Positions 1,227-46,213 of a stretch of 63,847 bases of DNA are shown one piece after another (the first letter of the stretch is position 1; each line of letters begins with the position of its first letter). The notes beneath the pieces are model-generated. The model ran no database searches and was not told where the DNA came from. It worked only from the letters and a program-made list of their open reading frames with translations. Origin of the DNA: Candidatus Methanophagales archaeon (lineage in GTDB: Archaea > Halobacteriota > Syntropharchaeia > Alkanophagales > Methanospirareceae); the NCBI GenBank assembly GCA_003336485.1, contig QENH01000199.1, positions 1 to 63,847 of the forward strand, read 5' to 3'. A program made the position numbers and the translations under genes.

Positions 1227-2306
1227 ATGACGGCTAAAGGCATTTGGGGAAGTTTCTCTGCCATTTTGGCTTTATGTGTTATCTTGCTTGCTGTGTCGCC
1301 TTCTATGGCAGGTGCATGTCCCACGGGAGTTGGCTGTGGGTGCAGTGATGATGCCGCCTTTGGTGCGGCCCTTAGCGCAGGCATGAAGGTCCCTAATGTC
1401 GAAAGCGGAATGCCGGCAAACTTAGATGTTAGCAAGCACGAGATGTTGACATACACAAACGCGGAATACGACTTTACAATTGGATATCTTCGTGATTGGA
1501 CCGTGCAGGGAGACATTTTGGACACTGAGGTGATATTATCCGGGCCGATAGTGGATGGCTACATGATAAACGCGAACGTAATAACAGTAGAACTACCAGC
1601 AGAGATGACGACATACGAATATGCAAAAGCTGGCAGAGAGCAGTTTCCTGAAGTATGGGTAATTGTTGATACATTCAACGGCACAATTTCGAATGGCGAA
1701 CCTGTTTCGGGGCATATAATTACAACCACAACGGGAGAAGGGATTGAGGTTAAACATAGGCAAGCATGTCTCGTTCGTAATACGACGGCTTATGTAATTG
1801 GTTTCACTGCTGCATCGAGTACATTTGACGCGGCAGAATCGGATTACTTTGTGCCTATGTTACAAAGCTTTAAATACATAGAAGACGTGGCTGGGGTAGA
1901 GATTTCGATAACAAACCCTTCTGAGGTCTTGGAAGGTGGAAAATTCACTGCGATTGTAACCCTAGATGATAGTACAGACCTCTCAATATTTCTGTTTAAG
2001 CTGAACTATGATCCTTCGGTCATAGCGTTAACCGAAGTCGAAGAGGGATTTGATAGCGCAACCGCTAGTAGCTATACTTGGCTGAGCTGGGGAGATAAAG
2101 GCACAAGGCAAATTGTCGCTTACTCGGATACATTGGGCACTCTAGTAAACGGATCTGCGGAACTAGTAAGGCTTGAGTTCGATATTGTTGGACGCGCAGG
2201 AGAACAAAGCGTTCTTGATATTCAAGGAATTATTGGTGATTCCGCTATGAAGCAAATAGAAACGATATGGGTGGACTCAGAGGTTACCATCACGCCCGAA
2301 GAATAG
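1227..2306 (+). CDS. secreted protein with C-terminal cohesin-like domain
   Basis: N-terminal signal/anchor (WGSFSAILALCVILLAVSPSMAGA). C-terminal segment FTAIVTLDDSTDLSIFLFKLNYDPSVIALTEVEEG...ELVRLEFDIVGRAGEQSVLDIQG resembles the cohesin fold signature. Confidence 0.65.
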   Translation: MTAKGIWGSFSAILALCVILLAVSPSMAGACPTGVGCGCSDDAAFGAALSAGMKVPNVESGMPANLDVSKHEMLTYTNAEYDFTIGYLRDWTVQGDILDTEVILSGPIVDGYMINANVITVELPAEMTTYEYAKAGREQFPEVWVIVDTFNGTISNGEPVSGHIITTTTGEGIEVKHRQACLVRNTTAYVIGFTAASSTFDAAESDYFVPMLQSFKYIEDVAGVEISITNPSEVLEGGKFTAIVTLDDSTDLSIFLFKLNYDPSVIALTEVEEGFDSATASSYTWLSWGDKGTRQIVAYSDTLGTLVNGSAELVRLEFDIVGRAGEQSVLDIQGIIGDSAMKQIETIWVDSEVTITPEE

Positions 2307-36836: not shown

Positions 36837-37728
36837 GGCAACCGCAGAAGAACCTCTTATTAGTGACGAGATCGCCGCTGACGAAACGTTCCTTTCACTT
36901 GCTTTTTTTTTCGTACCGTTTCTTCTCTTTCATCCATTATCACCCCCTCTTACTACATCTATTATGTTGATCGGGTATAAAATCACGTCGACACATGTGA
37001 TTAGGTCCAATAATTAGATCAACGGCGTTTAATGCACAAAATAGTTCTTCAATAATATCCACAGTAAAGGATTGATCATGCATTGCATATTATAGTAAAA
37101 TAAATCGATATAAAAAGGTTTTCGCGGTTAGCGTTTTTCACGCGGTTTTTATATACGGGAACGCACAAATATATCTTTGCTCTTGGAGGGGGAAGTAGCC
37201 TAACGGGAGAAGCACCTGGAAACAATTCATATACTTACTGCATCTCAGAAGATGAATGGAACGAGTTCGAGTCGATTCCTTGTAAAATAGGGGAGTATGT
37301 GGGGAACAGATTAGGGTTTGCCGATGGGCATATCTATTATAGTTCCAGTCCACCGCTTGCGGATTTGATAAGGGGCAATGCAGGGCTGCGAACTGCTGTA
37401 GGGGATGGTTTTGTTAGGCCGTTAGTGGATCTTACGCAGAGATTAGTAGAATGAGCGGAAATGGGGTTTAGAGGGTGACAAAAAGAATGGATAAGAAAAA
37501 AGTATGGTTACTCTTTCGTGTAGCCTTTAGGAAGCAAGTATCTCATTTTTAGACGGTGATTGAGTAACGTCCCATGAGACACGCACTTTATCACCGGCTA
37601 TATGGGTATGTAAAGCACAGGGCTTTGAAGAATTTCGTAGATTGGAATAATGCAAAGTTTTTAAAAGCGTGGATGCTCTTAAACTAAATGATACTTATAA
37701 AGGGTAAAAAGTGAAATATATAGGGTAA

Positions 37729-40700
37729 ATGACTTACACAAAAGAACAAGGAAAGCAAAAGATTAAAGAACTCGTTGAGCGATTCAGGTATAATCTTGAT
37801 GTTTACAAAAAGTCAGCGTATAACGAAACACAAGTAAGGCGAGAATTCATTGACCCTTTCTTTGAAGCCTTGGGCTGGGACGTGAGCAATAAACAAGGCT
37901 ATGCAGAGCAATACAAAGATGTAGTTCACGAGGATGCAATAAAAGTAGGGCATTCAACAAGAGCACCTGATTACAGTTTCAGGATTGGGGGACAGCGGAA
38001 GTTCTTTGTCGAAGCGAAGAAACCGGCAGTGGACATAAAAGAGGACGTCGCCCCATCATATCAACTGAGACGGTATGCTTGGAGCGCGAAACTGCAGTTA
38101 TCTATTGTAACGGATTTCGAGGAGTTCTCGGTATTCAACTGTCAGATGAAGCCAAATCCAACGGACAAGCCCGGCTTAGGTCGGTTTGCATACTATACGT
38201 TTGACGAGTATCTCGATAAGTTTGACGAGATCTACGACGTGTTCTCAAAGGAAGCGGTACTCAAGGGCAGTTTCGATCGGTACGCGCAATCTACAAAGGG
38301 CAAGAAGGGCACTGCGACAGTAGATAGCGAATTCTTAAAGGAGATAGAGAGCTGGCGTGAGCAGCTGGCTAAGAATATCGCGCTAAGGGATCCTAATGTG
38401 AGTATATACGAGTTAAACTATTCGGTACAGAAGTTGTTGGATCGCATAATCTTCCTGCGGATTTGTGAAGATCGCGGCATTGAACCTTATGGGCAGTTGC
38501 GGACACAAGCTGAATCCAGTGACGTGTACATGCATTTGCTGAACCATTTTAGATTGGCGGAATCGAAATATGATAGCGGGATATTCGATTTCGATAGCGA
38601 CGGGATAACGCCTGCCTTGACAATAGACGACAAGGTCTTGAAGACGATCATTCAGGATCTGTATTATCCGAAGTCGCCGTATGAGTTTTCTGTGCTCGGG
38701 GTTGAGATCTTGGGCAATGTGTACGAGCAGTTTCTGGGTAAGGTTATCCGGCTGACGGCAGGGCATCAGGCGAAGGTGGAGACGAAGCCGGAAGTGAAAA
38801 AGGCGGGTGGGGTGTATTACACGCCTCAGTATATCGTTGAATATATCGTGGAGAATACGGTAGGTAAGTTGATTGCGGGAAAGACGCCGGAAGAGATTGC
38901 ACATATAAAGATTCTGGATCCGGCATGCGGTTCTGGTAGTTTCCTTATTGGTGCGTATACGTATCTGCTGCGGTATCATCGGGATTGGTACGTTAGTAAC
39001 AAACCGAAGAAGCATAAAGAGGCGGTGTTTCAAGTTAAAGCGGATGAATGGTACTTAACAACGGCTGAAAAGAAGCGGATTCTTTTGGATAATATCTTTG
39101 GCGTTGATATAGACTCACAGGCGGTAGAAGTGACGAAGATGAGTCTGCTACTGAAGGTGCTGGAGCACGAGAGCCGGGAGAGTATAGATCAGCAGATGAA
39201 ATTGGGACTGGAGGGTGTGCTGCCGAATCTGGGTGATAATATCAAGTGCGGGAATTCGCTTATCGGGCCGGAATATTATGATTTGGGGCAGCAGGGGTCT
39301 CTTTTTGACGAGGCGGAGATGAGGCGGGTTAATGTGTTTGATTGGAATGACGATGTGAAAGGGTTTGGGGAAATCTTAAAGAAAGGGGGGTTTGATTGCG
39401 TTGTGGGGAATCCGCCGTATGTGCGGATTCAGACCATGAAAGAGTGGGCTCCAACAGAGGTGAAATTTTACAAGAAGCACTTTGTAGCAGCTAGCAAAGG
39501 CAATTATGACATCTATGTCATCTTTGTAGAACGGGCACTTCAATTACTCAATGTTCGAGGGCTGATGGGTTACATATTGCCTCATAAGTTCTTCCAGGCC
39601 AAGTATGGCCAACCTTTACGCGAGTTGACTGCAAGGGGGGAGTACCTGGGCAAAATCGTTCACTTTGGCGACCAGCAGGTATTTGATGGAGCAAGTACTT
39701 ACACATGTCTACTTTTTTTGGACCGGGCGGGTAACAAGAGCTTCCGCTACGTCAAAGTTCGCGACTTAAACGCTTGGCGGATTAGCGGCGATGCAACCGA
39801 TGGCAAAATCCATGCGGATAAAGTAAAGGGGGGTGAATGGAACTTTGTTGTAGGTCCAGAAGCATCTCTGTTTGAACGAATGAGGGAGATACCAATAAAG
39901 TTGGGAGATGTAGCGATACGTATGTTTCAGGGTTCGATTACAAGCGCTGACACTGTTTATCTGTTCAAAGAATATCAAAACGAAAACGAAGATATTGTTG
40001 ACGTTTGGTCGAAAGAACTAAACGCATGGATCAAAATTGAACGGGCCGTTCTCAAAACAGTCGTTCGGAGCGGGAATATCAGCCGCTACTCAGCCAATCC
40101 TACTGCTCTTGTACTTTTTCCCTATGAAGTCCAAGAGAGCAATGCACGTCTTTATACACCGACGGAGATGCAAGAGCAATATCCTCTAGCTTGGGCGTAT
40201 CTTAAGCAAAATAAAAGGCTGCTTGAAGGGCGAGAGAAAGGAAAGTTCAAGGATCTGCAATGGTACCGCTTCGGGCGCACTCAAAATTTAGGCATGTGGG
40301 AACAGCCTAAGTTAATGATCCCATACATGATAACAAACCTTGCTGCTTACTACGATAAAAACGATAACTTTTACTTCATCAATGTCACAACGGGTGGATA
40401 CGGCATCACAATTGACGAAACGATGTTTAGTTATCTGTATTTGTGTGGATTATTAAATTCTCAATTGTTAAACTTTTACCTTAAGCAAGTGACTACCAAC
40501 TTCCGAGGTGGCTATTTTGCAGCAAATAAGCAGTTCATCGAACAACTGCCAATCCTCACTATCAACTTTGACGATCCTGCTACAAAAGCACAGCACGATA
40601 AACTTGTAGCTTTGGTTGAGAATATGCTTGAACTGCAGAAGAAATACCACGATACGAGAATGGAGCGCGATAAAGAGCTTTATGGACGGCAGATAAAGAT

Positions 40701-40785
40701 TGTTGATACGCAGATTGACAGACGGGTTTATGAGTTGTACGGGCTGACTGAGGAGGAGGTGAAGATTGTGGAAGAGAATCTTTAA
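37729..40785 (+). CDS. Type IIG restriction-modification enzyme (N-terminal PD-(D/E)xK nuclease + Eco57I-like N6-adenine methyltransferase + specificity domain)
   Basis: Nuclease-like APDYSFRIGGQRKFFVEAKKP. MTase motif I ILDPACGSGSFLIGAY and motif IV VVGNPPYVRIQ. C-terminal ...VYELYGLTEEEVKIVEE tail is typical of this family. 1018 aa, intact. Confidence 0.85.
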   Translation: MTYTKEQGKQKIKELVERFRYNLDVYKKSAYNETQVRREFIDPFFEALGWDVSNKQGYAEQYKDVVHEDAIKVGHSTRAPDYSFRIGGQRKFFVEAKKPAVDIKEDVAPSYQLRRYAWSAKLQLSIVTDFEEFSVFNCQMKPNPTDKPGLGRFAYYTFDEYLDKFDEIYDVFSKEAVLKGSFDRYAQSTKGKKGTATVDSEFLKEIESWREQLAKNIALRDPNVSIYELNYSVQKLLDRIIFLRICEDRGIEPYGQLRTQAESSDVYMHLLNHFRLAESKYDSGIFDFDSDGITPALTIDDKVLKTIIQDLYYPKSPYEFSVLGVEILGNVYEQFLGKVIRLTAGHQAKVETKPEVKKAGGVYYTPQYIVEYIVENTVGKLIAGKTPEEIAHIKILDPACGSGSFLIGAYTYLLRYHRDWYVSNKPKKHKEAVFQVKADEWYLTTAEKKRILLDNIFGVDIDSQAVEVTKMSLLLKVLEHESRESIDQQMKLGLEGVLPNLGDNIKCGNSLIGPEYYDLGQQGSLFDEAEMRRVNVFDWNDDVKGFGEILKKGGFDCVVGNPPYVRIQTMKEWAPTEVKFYKKHFVAASKGNYDIYVIFVERALQLLNVRGLMGYILPHKFFQAKYGQPLRELTARGEYLGKIVHFGDQQVFDGASTYTCLLFLDRAGNKSFRYVKVRDLNAWRISGDATDGKIHADKVKGGEWNFVVGPEASLFERMREIPIKLGDVAIRMFQGSITSADTVYLFKEYQNENEDIVDVWSKELNAWIKIERAVLKTVVRSGNISRYSANPTALVLFPYEVQESNARLYTPTEMQEQYPLAWAYLKQNKRLLEGREKGKFKDLQWYRFGRTQNLGMWEQPKLMIPYMITNLAAYYDKNDNFYFINVTTGGYGITIDETMFSYLYLCGLLNSQLLNFYLKQVTTNFRGGYFAANKQFIEQLPILTINFDDPATKAQHDKLVALVENMLELQKKYHDTRMERDKELYGRQIKIVDTQIDRRVYELYGLTEEEVKIVEENL

Positions 40786-40812
40786 ATATAGATACAACAA
40801 TCTAACTAAAAG

Positions 40813-41727
40813 GTGATAACGATGGATTTGAAAGATTTTATATACCTCGATATAGACCGTGTTCGATCTTTTACTTCACAACTTTTCGAAGGCATTCCGG
40901 AGACCAGTAATTCAAAAAATGGAAAGGAACAAGATATTAAAGGAAAATTTAAAGGCGGTGTGCCTCTTTTGGCAAGCGGTGGAGTTGAAGGAGGTTTATT
41001 GTTACGCCAAGAAAAAACTGAAACAAAAAGCCTACAACATTATATTTACGTGTTATTTGAAAATAAACTGAATGATTTGAAAAAACTTAAAGTATTGAAC
41101 GAAAAGTTTGATAAAAAAAATTGGGTTGATGGTATTGTAAGAAAGGGCTTAAAAGAGTCGGAATTTATCAAAATTACAGCAAATGTTAAAATATTTGACT
41201 ATGAATATTTAGACACTGTATTCAAAATGGTTAAAGAACTTCCAGACACGGTTGCTGAATTGACTTCGATGAGTTTAACCAAAGATAAAAAGAAACAGAA
41301 AAAAAGAGAAATGCTAAAAGAGATGGGTGCTCAGGATTGGGATAGTACTATAAGGTCAATATCAAAATTCATAGACACAATGTACAAAGGGATCATTAGC
41401 TTAAAAATATATCCTGTAGGTACGGATTCTGCACCGTATCTTTTAGGCAGACTTAATAAAAACTACCTGCAATATGACCGGGAAACATTATTATTTCAAT
41501 ACGGTACAGAACCAAATCAAAAGTGGACGATAGTTGGGCAAATATCTACGATCCCTGACAAAAAGGAGACTACGGTAGAAGAACCACAACTAAAGGATGA
41601 ATATAATATGCTTGATGTGGAGAATATAATGGAATATATACTAAAAATTATGGTAAGTACGGGACTGAAATTTTCTGTGTCATATCCTTCAATTGGTATT
41701 ATTCCATTGGCAATATATAGAGTTTGA
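40813..41727 (+). CDS. hypothetical protein, no recognisable domain (defence-island cassette 1)
   Basis: Intact 304-aa ORF. The likely start is ATG 40822, after AAAGGTG. Visibly more A/T-rich than the RM gene. MDLKDFIYLDIDRVRSFTSQLFEG... shows no motif I can assign. Confidence 0.6.
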   Translation: MITMDLKDFIYLDIDRVRSFTSQLFEGIPETSNSKNGKEQDIKGKFKGGVPLLASGGVEGGLLLRQEKTETKSLQHYIYVLFENKLNDLKKLKVLNEKFDKKNWVDGIVRKGLKESEFIKITANVKIFDYEYLDTVFKMVKELPDTVAELTSMSLTKDKKKQKKREMLKEMGAQDWDSTIRSISKFIDTMYKGIISLKIYPVGTDSAPYLLGRLNKNYLQYDRETLLFQYGTEPNQKWTIVGQISTIPDKKETTVEEPQLKDEYNMLDVENIMEYILKIMVSTGLKFSVSYPSIGIIPLAIYRV

Positions 41728-41916
41728 AGGTTGTTGAAGACGTTATGCATACGAATGCTCGAACTACGGAAGAAATACCACGATGCGAGAAGGGAACGCG
41801 ATAAAGAGCTTTATGAACGACGGATACGAATTGTTGATGTGCAGATTGACCGGTTGGTGTATGATTTGTATGGGCTGACGGAGGAAGAGATTGGGATTGT
41901 GGAAGGGTATGAGTGA
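41728..41916 (+). other. start-less duplicate of the Type IIG gene 3-prime tail (copy B)
   Basis: MLELRKKYHDARRERDKELYERRIRIVDVQIDRLVYDLYGLTEEEIGIVEGYE versus the RM C-terminus MLELQKKYHDTRMERDKELYGRQIKIVDTQIDRRVYELYGLTEEEVKIVEENL. It begins directly after the TGA of cassette 1, in the same frame. Confidence 0.8.
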
Positions 41917-42067
41917 AGTAGTTATGCAATTCGCACAGTTATTGGGTGCATCCTCTTTGTCGCGGTGGAAACTTGAGACGAGAAAAGCTTATATGTAAAG
42001 AAAGCTAAAAACAGTTGGTGATTGAGAATAGAAAATGGGGGCGAGGGTGATGGAGGTTGGAAGTGCT

Positions 42068-43825
42068 ATGCCAGTAAATATTAATCCAATATTTCCGCTT
42101 TCTTACAATCTCGCTGATGGGAAAAAAAAGTATGTTCTATTTTGCGGAGCAGGAGTATCAAAAGATGCTGGTATTCCTACCGGCTGGGAAATCCTCTTAG
42201 AGACAGTAAGACATATTAGAACTCAAAAAGAGGGAGAGAACAAAGAATAAACTGACAAGGAAATGGAAACGTACTATGAAGAAAATTTTGAAGACTCTAC
42301 TTATTCAGATATCATTGAAAGTTTATTTCCTTCAACAGAGGAACAAAGAGCGTTTTTAGAGAACTTCTTTGAGAACAAAGCACCCGGAAAGGCTCATAAA
42401 TTGATTGCAGAGTGGGTAAAAGCAGAATTAATCCGATTTATCATCACAACGAATTTTGATTCTTCAATCGAACATTCGCTAGATGATGTAGGATTAAGAG
42501 GGAAATATTCGGTTATTACAGATGGAGCGCAAGTCTTGACAAGCAAACCCTGGCATCTTGTAGAGAATTGCCGCATTTATAAAGTCCACGGCACCATCGA
42601 ACAAGGAGAAATAAAGAATACCCAAAAAAATTTAGAGAAATTCGATAACGATCTTGAAAATGAGTTCTTGGACATTATCGAAAGACACGGCGTAATTGTG
42701 TTAGGTTATGCGGGTAATAAAGAGGATAAGGCCGTGATGGACTGTTTCAACAAAAGGAGATTTAAAGGATACACTCTTTATTGGACTGTTCACGACAATC
42801 AAATTAAAGACAATGTAAAAGAGTTAGTAGAAGAAAGGCAAGATGGCAGGTTTATTCATATAGAAAGCGCTTCTGATTTTTTGGAAGATGTTTTGAATAG
42901 AGTCGAAATTGCAAGAAAAGGAACGGAACAGACATCGGAGGCGGTTGCACAAGTCCGGTTTAAGAATCTAATTACCTCCGGCTCAGATGTTGAGATAAGA
43001 CAGACCATTGATGAAGAAAGAAGAAAACTCAAAAAATATTTTGAAACTATTTTAGATGAAGTAGATGAAGAAGATTATAAATCTCTGTGGGATGGCTACT
43101 TAAAGCTATTCAATTATTCGTTTAACTTTTTGAGTTTGGTCGATCAGATAATTAAATACCAAAATAAATATTGGGAAAACATATTGCCGGTATTTGAAGA
43201 AATCCAGTCTTTGAATAAAAATCGAAGTCAACATGGCAAAGAGGGGTTGGTGAACTACTATTTCTTTACTTTATTGGAAATGATAGGTGGGATTTTATTA
43301 GAAAATAAGGCTTTCCAGCTACTTCATTCATTATTAGCGGTAAAAAAATTGAATTACACAAAGGATGGAATGGAACCTATTTTAGATTGGGATACTTATG
43401 CGCATTTCATCGAAGTAAAAAATGATGAGGAGGCGAAAGAGACAGGGCAGAACTGGATTGTTCCTCGCATGCATTACCTATGTCAATTAATAGAAAGTCA
43501 AGAGATTCCGTTTGAATATGATTTGAGGGGACGAATAGTTGATGTTGATTTACTATACTTTGTGTATCCTGTTATACATCCTATGGGTCGTTATTCTTAT
43601 TATTGGTCTCCAGAATCAAGCATTTATTCAAGGGGGGATTCTTCGGAGTTATTTAAAAAGATAAAATATGACGGAACGTTTGGAACCGCAGTAGCCAATG
43701 AGTTATTCAATATAAGTTATGAGGAACTTGTTGAAAAATTAGGAGAGGCAAAAGAGAGTTTTAACACGAACGTAATAGGTAGCTTTCATACACCCTGGGT
43801 AGGTAATCCGTTTGAGGATTTTTGA
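42068..43825 (+). pseudogene. SIR2-like (SIR2_2-type) NADase-domain protein with uncharacterised C-terminal domain, interrupted by an in-frame TAA
   Basis: FCGAGVSKDAGIPTGW lies in ORF 42035..42250. TAA at 42248-42250. The same frame continues with ...FIITTNFDSSIEH...IYKVHGT...VLGYAG (ORF 42263..43825). ATG 42068 follows GGAGGT. Confidence 0.7.
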
Positions 43826-43828
43826 TGA

Positions 43829-44062
43829 ACCGATGAAAATATACCTCCAACTGAAAAAGCAAAGCACGATAAACTTGTGGCTCTGGTTGAGAACATGCTC
43901 GAACTGCAGAAGAAACACCACTATGCCAGAATGGACCGCGATAAAGAGCTTTATGAGCGGCAGATAAAGATGGTTGATGCGCAGATTGACAGGTTGGTTT
44001 ATGAGTTGTATGGGCTGACGGAGGAAGAGGTGAAGGTGGTGAAAGAGAGTGTGATTAGATGA
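43829..44062 (+). other. start-less duplicate of the Type IIG gene 3-prime tail (copy C)
   Basis: PPTEKAKHDKLVALVENMLELQKKHHYARMDRDKELYERQIKMVDAQIDRLVYELYGLTEEEVKVVKE versus the RM C-terminus DDPATKAQHDKLVALVENMLELQKKYHDTRMERDKELYGRQIKIVDTQIDRRVYELYGLTEEEVKIVEE. It follows TGA-TGA of the SIR2 ORF, in frame. Confidence 0.85.
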
Positions 44063-44238: not shown

Positions 44239-44902
44239 ATGAAAATTCGAAAATTCGAAATAAGGAATTTTCGCAATCTTCGTAATATCGAGGTATATCC
44301 TGCACATACTACGATATTTATTGGAGAAAATAATGCAGGTAAATCAAATCTGTTATATGCGCTACGATTATTGCTTGATCCCGAGGCAAAAAGGCTTGAA
44401 TCTGGAATTTCCGAAGAGGATATTAACGATTTGGCAAAAGATGTCACAAATCTTTTATCGCCCCTCATTCCAAGTGGTCAAGGTGAAGTTTCAATAGCAG
44501 TTGCCACTGAAGACCCTTCACAATTAGTCAAGGGACTTCGTCTTAATCTTAAACGTCAATCAGACTACAGAGCATATGATATGTCTCGGCATGGAACAGG
44601 CTTACAAAACCTCGTTCTAATAGCAATGTTTAGACATAGAATATCTACCGCAGGAGTAAGTAATTCAACCAATTCTCGCCATAGAGGAGCCTGAGGCTCA
44701 TTTGCACCCGCAGGCTCAGCGTTGCTTACTCAAGGATTTAGAGAAAATTGGCGGACCGGTACTTTTGACAACACACTCGCCAGGTATAGTAGAGTGCTCA
44801 GATCCTTTAGGACTTATCCGTCTGACTTCAACGGATCAAAATCAATTTTCAGGATTCATGGGAAACCGCACTTGGACTTGCTATTATAGAACTTGCACAT
44901 AA
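44239..44902 (+). pseudogene. decayed OLD-family / AAA_15-type ABC ATPase
   Basis: MKIRKFEIRNFRNLRNIEVYP...FIGENNAGKSNLLYAL (Walker A). After a frameshift, ILAIEEPEAHLHPQAQ (Walker B-like) and LLTTHSP. Only ~220 codons in total, and no TOPRIM region is recognisable. Confidence 0.6.
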
Positions 44903-44930
44903 TCCCAGTTCAAGCCTATTTTTACATAGG

Positions 44931-45521
44931 GTGTTAGCGGCAGTTGAAGAAGGTGGTCTGGCATTTCGGCTTGGAGACGAAGATGCTCTTGATGAAGCCT
45001 TAAGAATTCGTGATAAACTTAAAATATCTGAAAACTTAGAATTTAATCCAAAGAAAGTACACAAAATTTTAGATGCAGCGGGCATGGAAGAGATTATACA
45101 AAAAGTATCAGCGGGTATTAGTGATGCTCGACAAAGGATAACGAATCTAAGAAAGATGATAGAAGATATATCTTCGGAGGCTGGAAAACATGGTATTGAT
45201 CTTCTTCAGGTAATAGATCGATTCTTAGGTCACGGAGCAATTCAAATTATATCTGGTCATCAGTCAAAAGGTGGTGAATTCGATATTGTATTTTTTATTG
45301 GTTTAGAAGATGATGTACTTCCCGATTATCGAGCTCACAACAATGATGAGAAACTTGCTGAGGAGCGGCGAATCTTTTATGTTGGACTAACAAGGGCTCG
45401 CAAAGCAGCATATTTGACAAGCGTAACTCATAGACCCGTGCAGGACTGGGTGAAAAATGCTGTTCCATCAAGATTTATAGGGCATATTCCTTATGAATGT
45501 TTCAGTGAGGTTACTCTATGA
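44931..45521 (+). pseudogene. C-terminal fragment of a UvrD/PcrA-type helicase
   Basis: ISGHQSKGGEFDIVFFIGLEDDVLPDYRA...EERRIFYVGLTRARKAAYL = helicase motifs V/VI region. The N-terminal ATPase core is absent. Confidence 0.6.
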
Positions 45522-45601
45522 ACCCATTTCAAAGCTATAAAAACCCCTGAGAAAACGTGGAAAATGGAAAACTTTTTATATAGATTTTTTTTGGTATATA
45601 T

Positions 45602-46213
45602 ATGATGTATGATCATTCACAGACAATAGGTTTCTTTGATTTGGAAACACAGTATTTGTTTGAAGATATTGAACCACGATGGAAACAGATGAGGTGGCGG
45701 GAAAAATCAACAATTCGAGACACGTTGACAAAAAAGCTGCGATTAGCTGTCGCTGGTTTAATGGATCATGAAGGGGATGTAAAATTTTTTACTGAGGACA
45801 ATATTGAAGAACTATTTAATGCATTAGAATCTGTTGATCTGATTATTGGACATAATCTATTGATGTTTGATTACATAGTCTTGAGTTCATATTATTCCAG
45901 CATGGATGTAGTAGAAAAATTTCAAGAAAAGACCTTCGATACCCTGAAAGAATTAGAAAAGGTAACAGGCATATGGACTGGACTAGAGGACCTGGGACAG
46001 CTAAATTTGCGTAGCCACAAGTCTGAAGATACGTTAAAAATTCCTGAGATGTGGCGTGACGGGAAGCATGACGAGGTTAAGGCGTATCTTCGAACAGATT
46101 TGGAAATCACAAAAGGAATCTACGATTATGGTAAAACAAGAGGAGAACTCAAGTATACCTATAAAGAATATGGAGAAATAAAAGGTGTAAGAACTGTAAA
46201 GGTGCATTGGTAA
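45602..46213 (+). CDS. DEDDh-type 3-5 exonuclease (RNase H-like fold)
   Basis: Exo I FFDLET, Exo II IIGHNLLMFDYIVL, Exo III HDEVKAYLRTDLEITKGIYDY. Confidence 0.65.
   Translation: MMYDHSQTIGFFDLETQYLFEDIEPRWKQMRWREKSTIRDTLTKKLRLAVAGLMDHEGDVKFFTEDNIEELFNALESVDLIIGHNLLMFDYIVLSSYYSSMDVVEKFQEKTFDTLKELEKVTGIWTGLEDLGQLNLRSHKSEDTLKIPEMWRDGKHDEVKAYLRTDLEITKGIYDYGKTRGELKYTYKEYGEIKGVRTVKVHW

Follow-up and report, generated by a model that had tools for sequence, protein, structure and literature searches.

The element treated here lies in a 63,847-nt stretch of DNA from a Candidatus Methanophagales archaeon (assembly GCA_003336485.1, contig QENH01000199.1; this whole stretch is called the window below), in which an intact Type IIG restriction-modification (RM) gene is followed, in this order, by a DUF6414 gene, a copy of the RM gene's own 3' end, a SIR2-like gene bearing a nonsense mutation, another such copy, and the remnant of a unit composed of Gabija and an exonuclease. 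With moderate confidence, we regard this region as an integrase-free cassette array, which is headed by the RM gene and whose cassettes are exchanged by homologous recombination in the 3' block of that gene. The copies of the 3' block are referred to as tails, and those standing apart from an RM gene as orphan tails.

The head of the array has the layout of a Type IIG enzyme, namely an HSDR_N nuclease, an N6 methyltransferase/Eco57I part, a TaqI_C specificity domain and a C-terminal helical tail (Pfam domains HSDR_N, N6_Mtase, Eco57I, MmeI_Mtase and TaqI_C), and over its full length it matches the PADLOC model REase_MTase_IIG PDLC03604 (E 8e-272). Lookup of the exact protein sequence returned no record; the nearest homologues, 89-90% identical at the amino acid (aa) level, come from anaerobic methanotrophic archaea of group 1 (ANME-1/Methanophagales), including the single-cell genome AG-394-G06. 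On the last 360 nt of 19 full-length homologues of this gene, a profile hidden Markov model (HMM) was built, to whose columns the tail positions given here refer. The parts of the array in the window are as follows.

37729-40785, plus strand: intact Type IIG RM enzyme of 1018 aa, head of the array (Pfam and PADLOC)
40546-40785, plus strand: tail 1, the nucleotide-conserved 3' block of the RM gene (HMM columns ~121-360), lying within the functional open reading frame (ORF)
40813-41727, plus strand: cassette 1, a DUF6414 gene (Pfam PF19952, E 2.7e-28; G+C ~0.31-0.34)
41755-41916, plus strand: tail 2, a start-less orphan RM tail (HMM columns 199-353 and its own stop; 82% identical to tail 1)
42035-43828, plus strand: cassette 2, a SIR2-like gene of the PDC-S65 type, both pieces of which are matched by PADLOC PDLC05061, ending in TGATGA
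43846-44062, plus strand: tail 3, an orphan RM tail (HMM columns 150-351, a divergent end and a stop; 87-88% identical to tail 1)
44239-46213, plus strand: cassette 3, a terminal Gabija-like remnant with no tail after it (PADLOC matches to GajA and GajB)
44239-44694 and 44702-44902, plus strand: GajA fragments (PADLOC)
44832-45521, plus strand: C-terminal fragment of GajB (PADLOC)
45602-46213, plus strand: intact gene for a DEDD-exonuclease-like protein of 203 aa (p203)

That the 3' tail of the RM gene recurs twice downstream as start-less fragments had been proposed in an initial annotation of the window, and it is borne out by three approaches. A repeat search yielded one three-copy family of direct repeats, at 40575-40777 (reference), 41706-41908 and 43846-44048 (87%); the HMM aligned to 40429-40783 (the full RM 3' end), 41755-41909 (columns 199-353) and 43846-44047 (columns 150-351); and a 50-nt degenerate tail pattern gave three matches in the window versus none in 100 shuffles. 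A formal alignment with scoring of synonymous and nonsynonymous change, which the same annotation had suggested, gives pairwise identities of 82-88% (nucleotides) and 71-80% (amino acids) over the 153 nt shared by the three tails, with ratios of nonsynonymous to synonymous change (dN/dS) of 0.26-0.49. The cassettes are indeed A/T-rich, as had been stated, with a G+C content of 0.30-0.37 as against 0.42-0.44 in the tails and 0.43-0.50 in the RM gene. Neither orphan tail of the window has a start codon where the RM homology begins. The tails had also been thought to start within one or two codons of the preceding cassette's stop, which does not hold: RM homology sets in 27 nt (tail 2) and 20 nt (tail 3) after it, and these 20-27 nt are not RM-like.

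The same architecture recurs widely. The 50-nt tail pattern was scanned over GTDB (one genome per species) and over the metagenomes of the Joint Genome Institute (JGI). The GTDB scan found 47 stretches, mostly in metagenome-assembled genomes (MAGs) of Methanophagales and a few in bins of ANME-2/Methanosarcinales, Stahlbacteria, Desulfobacteria and Thermotogae, and the JGI metagenomes supplied 111 further stretches with the pattern. After removal of redundancy, 141 loci remain, again mostly from ANME-1/Methanophagales MAGs, with 130 orphan tails versus 88 full RM 3' ends, and 60 of these loci are arrays of 2-5 tails each, so that the cassette-plus-tail units that the initial annotation had proposed to look for elsewhere do exist. 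Downstream sequence of 2.5 kb or more is available for 43 RM ends, and behind 25 of them an orphan tail occurs. In all three loci nearest to the window, orphan tails lie downstream of the RM gene and the intervening genes differ:

L001: RM gene, gene for 337 aa, tail, TIR-like gene for 334 aa and gene for 134 aa, tail, PycTM-like gene, DUF2441 gene
L002: RM gene, DUF6414 gene, tail, then McrBC/Mrr
L003: RM gene, DUF2441 gene, tail, PycTM-like gene

No orphan tail occurs in the 10 kb behind four more distant RM homologues (57-66% identity; long bacterial contigs, L162-L168), which indicates that the architecture is specific to this RM lineage and its community and not a property of the whole enzyme family. 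Viral contigs contained no match to the tail pattern and hence provide no evidence for viral carriage of the units, and a tblastn search of plasmids with the consensus tail returned one weak Methanothermobacter match only, which is uninformative on the question of generality.

As a separate observation, contigs binned as Stahlbacteria (L015), Desulfobacteria (L030), Thermotogae (L047 and L103) and Methanosarcinales (L020 and L040) carry tail arrays and cassettes 80-90% identical in nucleotide sequence to those of ANME-1. Their presence in bacterial and ANME-2 bins is due either to recent transfer across domains in the seep community or to mis-binning.

Orphan tails are non-coding. In a conserved core of 135 nt, in which frameshifts and stops were scored, 27 of 119 orphan tails (23%) are disrupted versus two of 88 RM ends (2%). 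This matters for one explanation of the tails, according to which they are parts of former fusion proteins (cassette plus RM tail) or are reached by stop-codon readthrough, as the initial annotation had considered. Its starting point, that both orphan tails of the window share the frame of the gene before them with only TGA or TGA-TGA between, is arithmetically true, but without significance, as the preceding gene lies in the frame of the tail in 17 of 48 cases overall, which is the chance rate; the many tails with stops or frameshifts and the unrelated nucleotides behind the cassette stop speak against it as well. Mis-assembly of allelic RM genes fares no better: the copies in the window are 12-18% apart and the architecture is present in more than 100 independent assemblies, a single-cell genome among them, so that this origin is very unlikely. 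Readthrough, fusion and mis-assembly, taken as one explanation, are in our opinion hardly credible.

The arrays are strictly polar. Tails are all in direct orientation in 72 of 72 multi-tail loci, as they are in each of the 60 arrays, and the 38 non-redundant arrays that contain a full RM 3' end have just one, always in first position. The median distance from tail to tail is 1367 nt, which means that cassettes mostly are single genes; they start few nucleotides after the tail stop, often 3-9 nt behind or overlapping it, and end 0-100 nt ahead of the next tail. This layout could also have come about by passive decay of tandem modules, each consisting of an RM gene and a partner gene, from which all RM genes but one were deleted and in which the tails were retained for their expression signals and had no role in mobility. 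Truncated RM genes are in fact common (20 of 40 assessable RM 3' ends lie in ORFs of only 116-631 aa), and a deletion of the required kind exists in L017, where a 192-aa ORF (1595-2173, minus strand) fuses the nuclease N-terminus (RM residues 5-113; 87% identity with the window's RM protein) to the tail from HMM column 130 onwards; about 840 codons are deleted internally, and the right breakpoint coincides with the onset of the conserved block. A role in expression would further suit the purine-rich, GGAGGTGA-like tail end that precedes many cassettes starting within ~20 nt of the tail stop or overlapping it, and the distal units of the window are decaying. Against this, the RM gene would hardly come first in 38 of 38 arrays under random survival (probability ~1e-13), and no surveyed locus has two full RM 3' ends, let alone the full-length tandem RM genes that the initial annotation had named as an observation fatal to its own proposal. 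There are no 5' or internal RM fragments between cassettes either, since the gaps measure only 0-100 nt, and junctions that are shared despite differing downstream genes and unlinked upstream tails require recombination inside the tails anyway. Passive decay on its own is therefore rather improbable.

The boundaries of the tails bear on the kind of recombination involved. Orphan tails are 73-245 nt long and have a fixed right boundary at the RM stop codon (HMM columns ~350-358), whereas the left boundary varies between columns ~100 and ~310 but is constant for each cassette family: column 199 for DUF6414, 150 for SIR2 and ~280 for a family of 443-aa proteins. In the RM gene, columns 46-120, where the specificity domain ends, are poorly conserved at the nucleotide level, and conservation is high from ~121 to the stop, with the information content rising at column ~121 from 0.3-0.5 to 1.2-1.8 bits. 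Orphan tails never extend leftwards past this onset (column ~100-120). The conserved block codes for the C-terminal helices that follow the variable specificity domain, and no TaqI_C-domain sequence was found in orphan tails. Within the block there is a 14-nt near-palindrome, GATAAAGAGCTTTA (encoding DKELY), located in the window at 40669-40682, 41800-41813 and 43940-43953.

Site-specific recombination by a recombinase encoded elsewhere, acting in trans on an att-like site in the tail as in integrons or tycheposons, would explain arrays that are regular, unidirectional and made of mostly single promoter-less genes, an RM end that is always first, a fixed right boundary at the tail end, and the observation that cassette-linked sequence begins near column ~330 in all families. 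The 14-nt core could serve as the site, being invariant, synonymous positions included, in the first ten tails examined; this invariance was partly imposed by the search pattern, into which the core had been built, and at least six short orphan tails lack it. The left boundaries are variable, and tail conservation follows the codon-position pattern of coding sequence. Folding of the three window tails as DNA, on both strands, was no better than that of shuffles (z -0.36 to +0.76) and revealed no hairpin, the repeat search detected no inverted-repeat family in the tails, and no Rfam family matched them; readings of the tails as RNA elements or attC-like sites were rejected on the missing Rfam match and the non-significant folding. 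Integrases, transposases and resolvases are absent from the recurrent neighbouring families and from the Pfam tables of L001-L003, and in the window no recombinase domain was found in ORFs of at least 180 aa at 12.8-36.8 kb and 47.8-61 kb. These flanking ORFs are housekeeping genes (for example, PurL, SecF, UbiD, XPD and homoserine dehydrogenase), and the earlier statement that the island harbours no integrase or recombinase agrees with all ORFs scanned. A recombinase acting in trans is thus unlikely. Since neither a recombinase gene nor a structured site was found and the left boundary is not fixed, we favour, with moderate confidence, recombination by the host, either homologous or illegitimate and anchored by homology.

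Evidence for exchange within the tails comes from the cassettes themselves. Cassette families assort independently among arrays, and each of them retains its own cassette-to-tail junction. The DUF6414 cassette is 93-100% identical in nucleotide sequence in four loci (the window, L002, L004 and L042), in which it occupies different array positions and in one of which it is preceded by an orphan tail and not by the RM gene. Its identity extends from just past the upstream '..KNL*' ending, across the gene and into ~70 nt of the downstream tail; the '..KNL*'-type ending and the intergenic region are common to all four loci, whereas the flanking tails are only ~80% identical and visibly mosaic. The final codons of tail 1 in the window (..ENL*) co-vary with the DUF6414 cassette downstream, and the junction from this gene to the next tail, with a 27-nt gap and the boundary at column 199, is identical in every DUF6414 cassette found. 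A linkage test generalises this pattern; it covered 97 tails adjoining pairs of cassettes with an identity of 90% or more. In the upstream tail, divergence stays at background as far as column ~330, and linkage to the cassette is confined to the last ~30 nt; the downstream tail is partly linked, at its left end only. Upstream of PycTM-like genes stands either the RM end or a member of one of seven other families, and the neighbours of SIR2 differ in all four SIR2 loci. RM heads 89-90% identical carry differing arrays, and DUF6414, SIR2 and PycTM cassettes 90-100% identical sit in different arrays. The order RM gene, tail, PycTM is direct in L009 and L043, and in L003 a DUF2441 gene and a tail are interposed; the RM heads of these loci are not close alleles. 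Recurrence and linkage together support the earlier suggestion that the conserved tail acts as a recombination handle. They also reduce the two alternatives offered with it, a cassette that brings a replacement tail and a handle that swaps the gene body upstream, to two faces of one process.

The tails can be compared in one more way. The identity between an orphan tail and the RM tail heading its array is 86.5%, that to foreign RM tails 86.2% (median rank 0.5), and the own RM tail is in the top 5% for only two of 58 orphan tails. This equal similarity, together with the dN/dS values, which indicate purifying selection, implies that orphan tails were recently parts of other functional RM genes. 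Local gene conversion and in-situ duplication of the tails were ruled out by the same comparison. Independent insertions in situ with long target duplication, in which a cassette lands at the RM stop codon, duplicates 75-245 bp and leaves tails that diverge later, would fit a published class (PMC2853133) and may be how each cassette-to-tail junction first arose. As a general account they are distinctly unlikely, as an orphan tail resembles its own RM tail no more than foreign ones, the divergence between tails carries the signature of purifying selection, and the same junctions are met with in many genomes and at many array positions; most tails, on these three grounds, were inherited or imported and not made on the spot.

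Exchange by homologous recombination in the RM 3' block could proceed as follows. In this RM lineage, the final ~240 nt form a nucleotide-conserved block, which would serve as portable homology, and a cassette unit comprises the last ~30 nt of a tail (with the stop codon and a purine-rich ribosome-binding stretch), one or occasionally a few defence-type genes and the left part of the next tail. Recombination between tail copies would move such units and thereby insert, delete and reshuffle cassettes downstream of the RM gene, from whose promoter they probably are co-transcribed. A linear donor, containing the RM 3' part, a tail, a cassette and a partial tail, may recombine with the resident RM gene by a left crossover in the RM body or tail and a right crossover in a tail, which would add the cassette, possibly replace the RM head and strand the former tail. 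Alternatively, a circle excised between two tails may re-enter at any tail by a single crossover. Every event would leave a hybrid, start-less orphan tail, and either route would explain polarity, direct orientation, hybrid tails, cassette-specific junctions and the dissimilarity of adjacent tails. The first junction of each family probably was one illegitimate join, probably resembling insertion with long target duplication. Integration of cassettes at the RM 3' end, as initially envisaged, is upheld in so far as cassettes are tied to the conserved end and recur; the accompanying analogy to site-specific integration at tRNA genes finds no support in view of the missing integrase, the variable left boundaries and the lack of a folded or palindromic site.

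Several points weigh against this mechanism. The tails, only ~85% identical, are a poor substrate for canonical homologous recombination, and crossover positions are unmappable because linked and unlinked states are nearly alike in the well-conserved core; the tails may yet have a fixed crossover site. The tight junctions between cassette stop and tail have an origin that the mechanism leaves unexplained, and the surveyed loci include neither a direct recombination event nor an empty/occupied pair of otherwise identical strains. Many of these loci are short contigs, from which a recombinase encoded elsewhere in the genome would escape, and all were found through a lineage-specific DNA pattern of the tail, which biases the frequencies towards this lineage.

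The individual cassettes of the window differ in their state of preservation. The proximal one is intact, and its DUF6414 gene likely starts at the ATG at 40822, ahead of which AGGTGA is located. DUF6414 is the DolA-type domain of the Dodola system, which is composed of a DUF6414 protein (DolA) and a ClpB-like partner (DolB) (bioRxiv preprint 10.1101/2024.10.26.620412). Cassette 1 contains no ClpB-like gene and has no PADLOC match, and thus is not a Dodola system. The SIR2 gene of cassette 2 begins at 42035 and not, as first annotated, at 42263, and has an in-frame TAA at 42248-42250, where the intact 595-aa homologue of L011 has a Tyr (..KKYTDKEM..); accordingly, it is a pseudogene or a split gene. 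As the GAGVS NAD-binding motif lies in the N-terminal 71-aa piece (42035-42247), the remaining 520 aa are, judged from sequence, probably inactive. In L011, the junction from cassette to tail is as in the window (gap ~20 nt, HMM column 150). Cassette 3 is collinear, with 80-87% nucleotide identity, with an intact unit of L015 that consists of a tail, GajA (581 aa), GajB (593 aa) and p203; in comparison to it, GajA residues 68-191 and 346-581 and GajB residues 1-364 are deleted, and a full-length Gabija system therefore is not present. An orphan tail follows p203 in L035. This third unit, the nonsense codon and the strict polarity had escaped the initial annotation. The decay of the distal units, by the SIR2 nonsense codon and the Gabija deletions, is compatible with newer units adjoining the RM head, of which a single array is no test.

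An inverted, degenerate copy of the p203 5' region (36976-37153, minus strand, versus 45536-45856) is located about 575 nt upstream of the RM gene; it is internally deleted, has 71-84% nucleotide identity and covers protein residues ~40-91. An imperfect inverted repeat consequently brackets the entire island. The copy could have remained from an inversion or from a second array in inverted orientation.

Over all loci, the following families recur as cassettes.

PycTM-like membrane protein of 153 aa: 16 copies
Protein of 526 aa without known affiliation: 14 copies
DUF2254-like membrane proteins: 12 copies
OLD-TOPRIM protein: 12 copies, the only recurrent family on the opposite strand
PIN/DUF3368 protein: 11 copies
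Membrane protein of 173 aa: 11 copies
DUF2441 protein: 9 copies
DUF6414 protein: 8 copies
Further families: Schlafen/AlbA_2, TIR-like, SIR2, Gabija, GmrSD, McrBC, NucS-like and metallophosphatase

Most of these cassettes presumably have a function in defence. Two other kinds of genes were seen at the margins of arrays. In five loci (L001 at 1037-2011, L033 at 655-1695 and three others), the RM gene is preceded on its own strand by a release-factor-like gene of the baeRF/acVLRF1 type, which the window lacks and which could represent one more conserved component of the island. An opposite-strand toxin-antitoxin pair of the ParE type closes the array in L001 (12567-13024) and in L002 (10953-11410), the other cassettes of which differ, which suggests a conserved distal island border in some genomes.

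Defence islands turn over fast, and beyond integrons and integrase-bearing islands the route by which they do so usually remains vague ('hotspots'). The arrays offer a sequence-defined handle for this turnover, with which gain, loss and exchange of cassettes become traceable in uncultured, globally important archaea. Since anything between two tails is a cassette, they also delimit dozens of compact, mostly uncharacterised candidate immune effectors, including transmembrane, SIR2, TIR-like, Schlafen, OLD-TOPRIM, PIN and metallophosphatase proteins. Should recombination in the tails be confirmed, a conserved gene end alone would suffice for integron-like modularity, and the occurrence of near-identical units in bins of ANME-1, ANME-2, Desulfobacteria, Stahlbacteria and Thermotogae would suggest that immunity genes are shared across domains within one community. 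Our literature searches found no published description of tail-separated cassette arrays, in line with the initial annotation, which was aware of no described mechanism of this kind. A 2026 paper on hotspots in ANME-1 reports structural variants in adenine methyltransferase and toxin-antitoxin genes and does not mention this architecture (PMC13385816).

With regard to known systems, we place the arrays with the recombination-driven defence hotspots and the repeat-flanked defence insertions. Among known classes, insertion with long target duplication comes closest; in it, defence genes without mobility genes are flanked by long direct repeats of variable length, exceeding 30 bp and often spanning the stop codon of a target gene that stays intact; one such target in H. 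pylori is a Type IIG gene (Furuta, Abe and Kobayashi 2010, PMC2853133). Arrays of the window type likewise have direct repeats longer than 30 bp over the stop codon of an intact RM gene and lack mobility genes. They differ in that the repeats are not copies of the local target, that the target is reused iteratively, with up to five tails and with cassette-plus-junction units recurring across genomes, and that they occur in archaea and in partners from the same communities. The class of insertions is credited to Nobusato et al. 2000 as well. The arrays further share partial direct 3'-end copies between tandem units, and an intact target gene, with islands at tRNA/tmRNA genes and with tycheposons. 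In those islands and in the tycheposon arrays of Prochlorococcus, tandem units are split by partial direct copies of the target's 3' end, the target is intact, and cargo-only units without an integrase of their own occur. In contrast, no integrase is found in or beside the arrays described here, repeat length and left boundary vary by cassette, and the target is a protein-coding defence gene.

In the minimal mobile elements of Neisseria (Saunders and Snyder 2002; discussed in PMC3787668), strains exchange alternative cassettes by homologous recombination in conserved flanks alone, and the elements encode no machinery of their own. The arrays resemble them, with the same cassette in distant genomes, different ones in close relatives, conserved flanks and no mobility genes, but the Neisseria flanks are two different chromosomal genes with one cassette per site, whereas here the same gene fragment of ~75-245 nt stands on both flanks, which allows stacking into arrays. 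Shufflons and domain movement in RM specificity genes, such as phase-variable hsdS, PglX shufflons and domain movement (DoMo) in H. pylori (PMC3077401, PMC3467074, PMC6265443), resemble the arrays in that conserved segments beside a variable specificity domain recombine and silent start-less fragments adjoin the expressed gene. Shufflons, however, employ inverted repeats and usually a dedicated recombinase and swap RM specificity domains, while the repeats of the arrays are all direct, contain no specificity domain and bracket unrelated genes.

Integrons, including the defence-cassette integrons of Vibrio and the integrons found in Archaea, share several features with the arrays: genes that run in one direction, are mostly single and lack promoters, a repeat behind each of them that varies in length but is conserved at its end, independent assortment of cassettes, a fixed head, and many cassettes that resemble anti-phage effectors. 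The arrays have neither IntI nor another integrase, their repeat is a fragment of a coding gene instead of a folded imperfect palindrome (attC), and their head is an RM gene, the own 3' end of which is the first repeat. We tentatively propose, as a possibility short of probable, that ANME-1 and sediment bacteria run an integrase-free counterpart of the integron, in which the ~240-nt RM 3' block is a universal docking sequence, and single-gene effectors are stacked behind the RM gene, shuffled and shared between genomes and even between domains. Orphan tails might then be, with the same reserve, both the scars and the handles of this traffic, which would be driven by the recombination machinery of the host.

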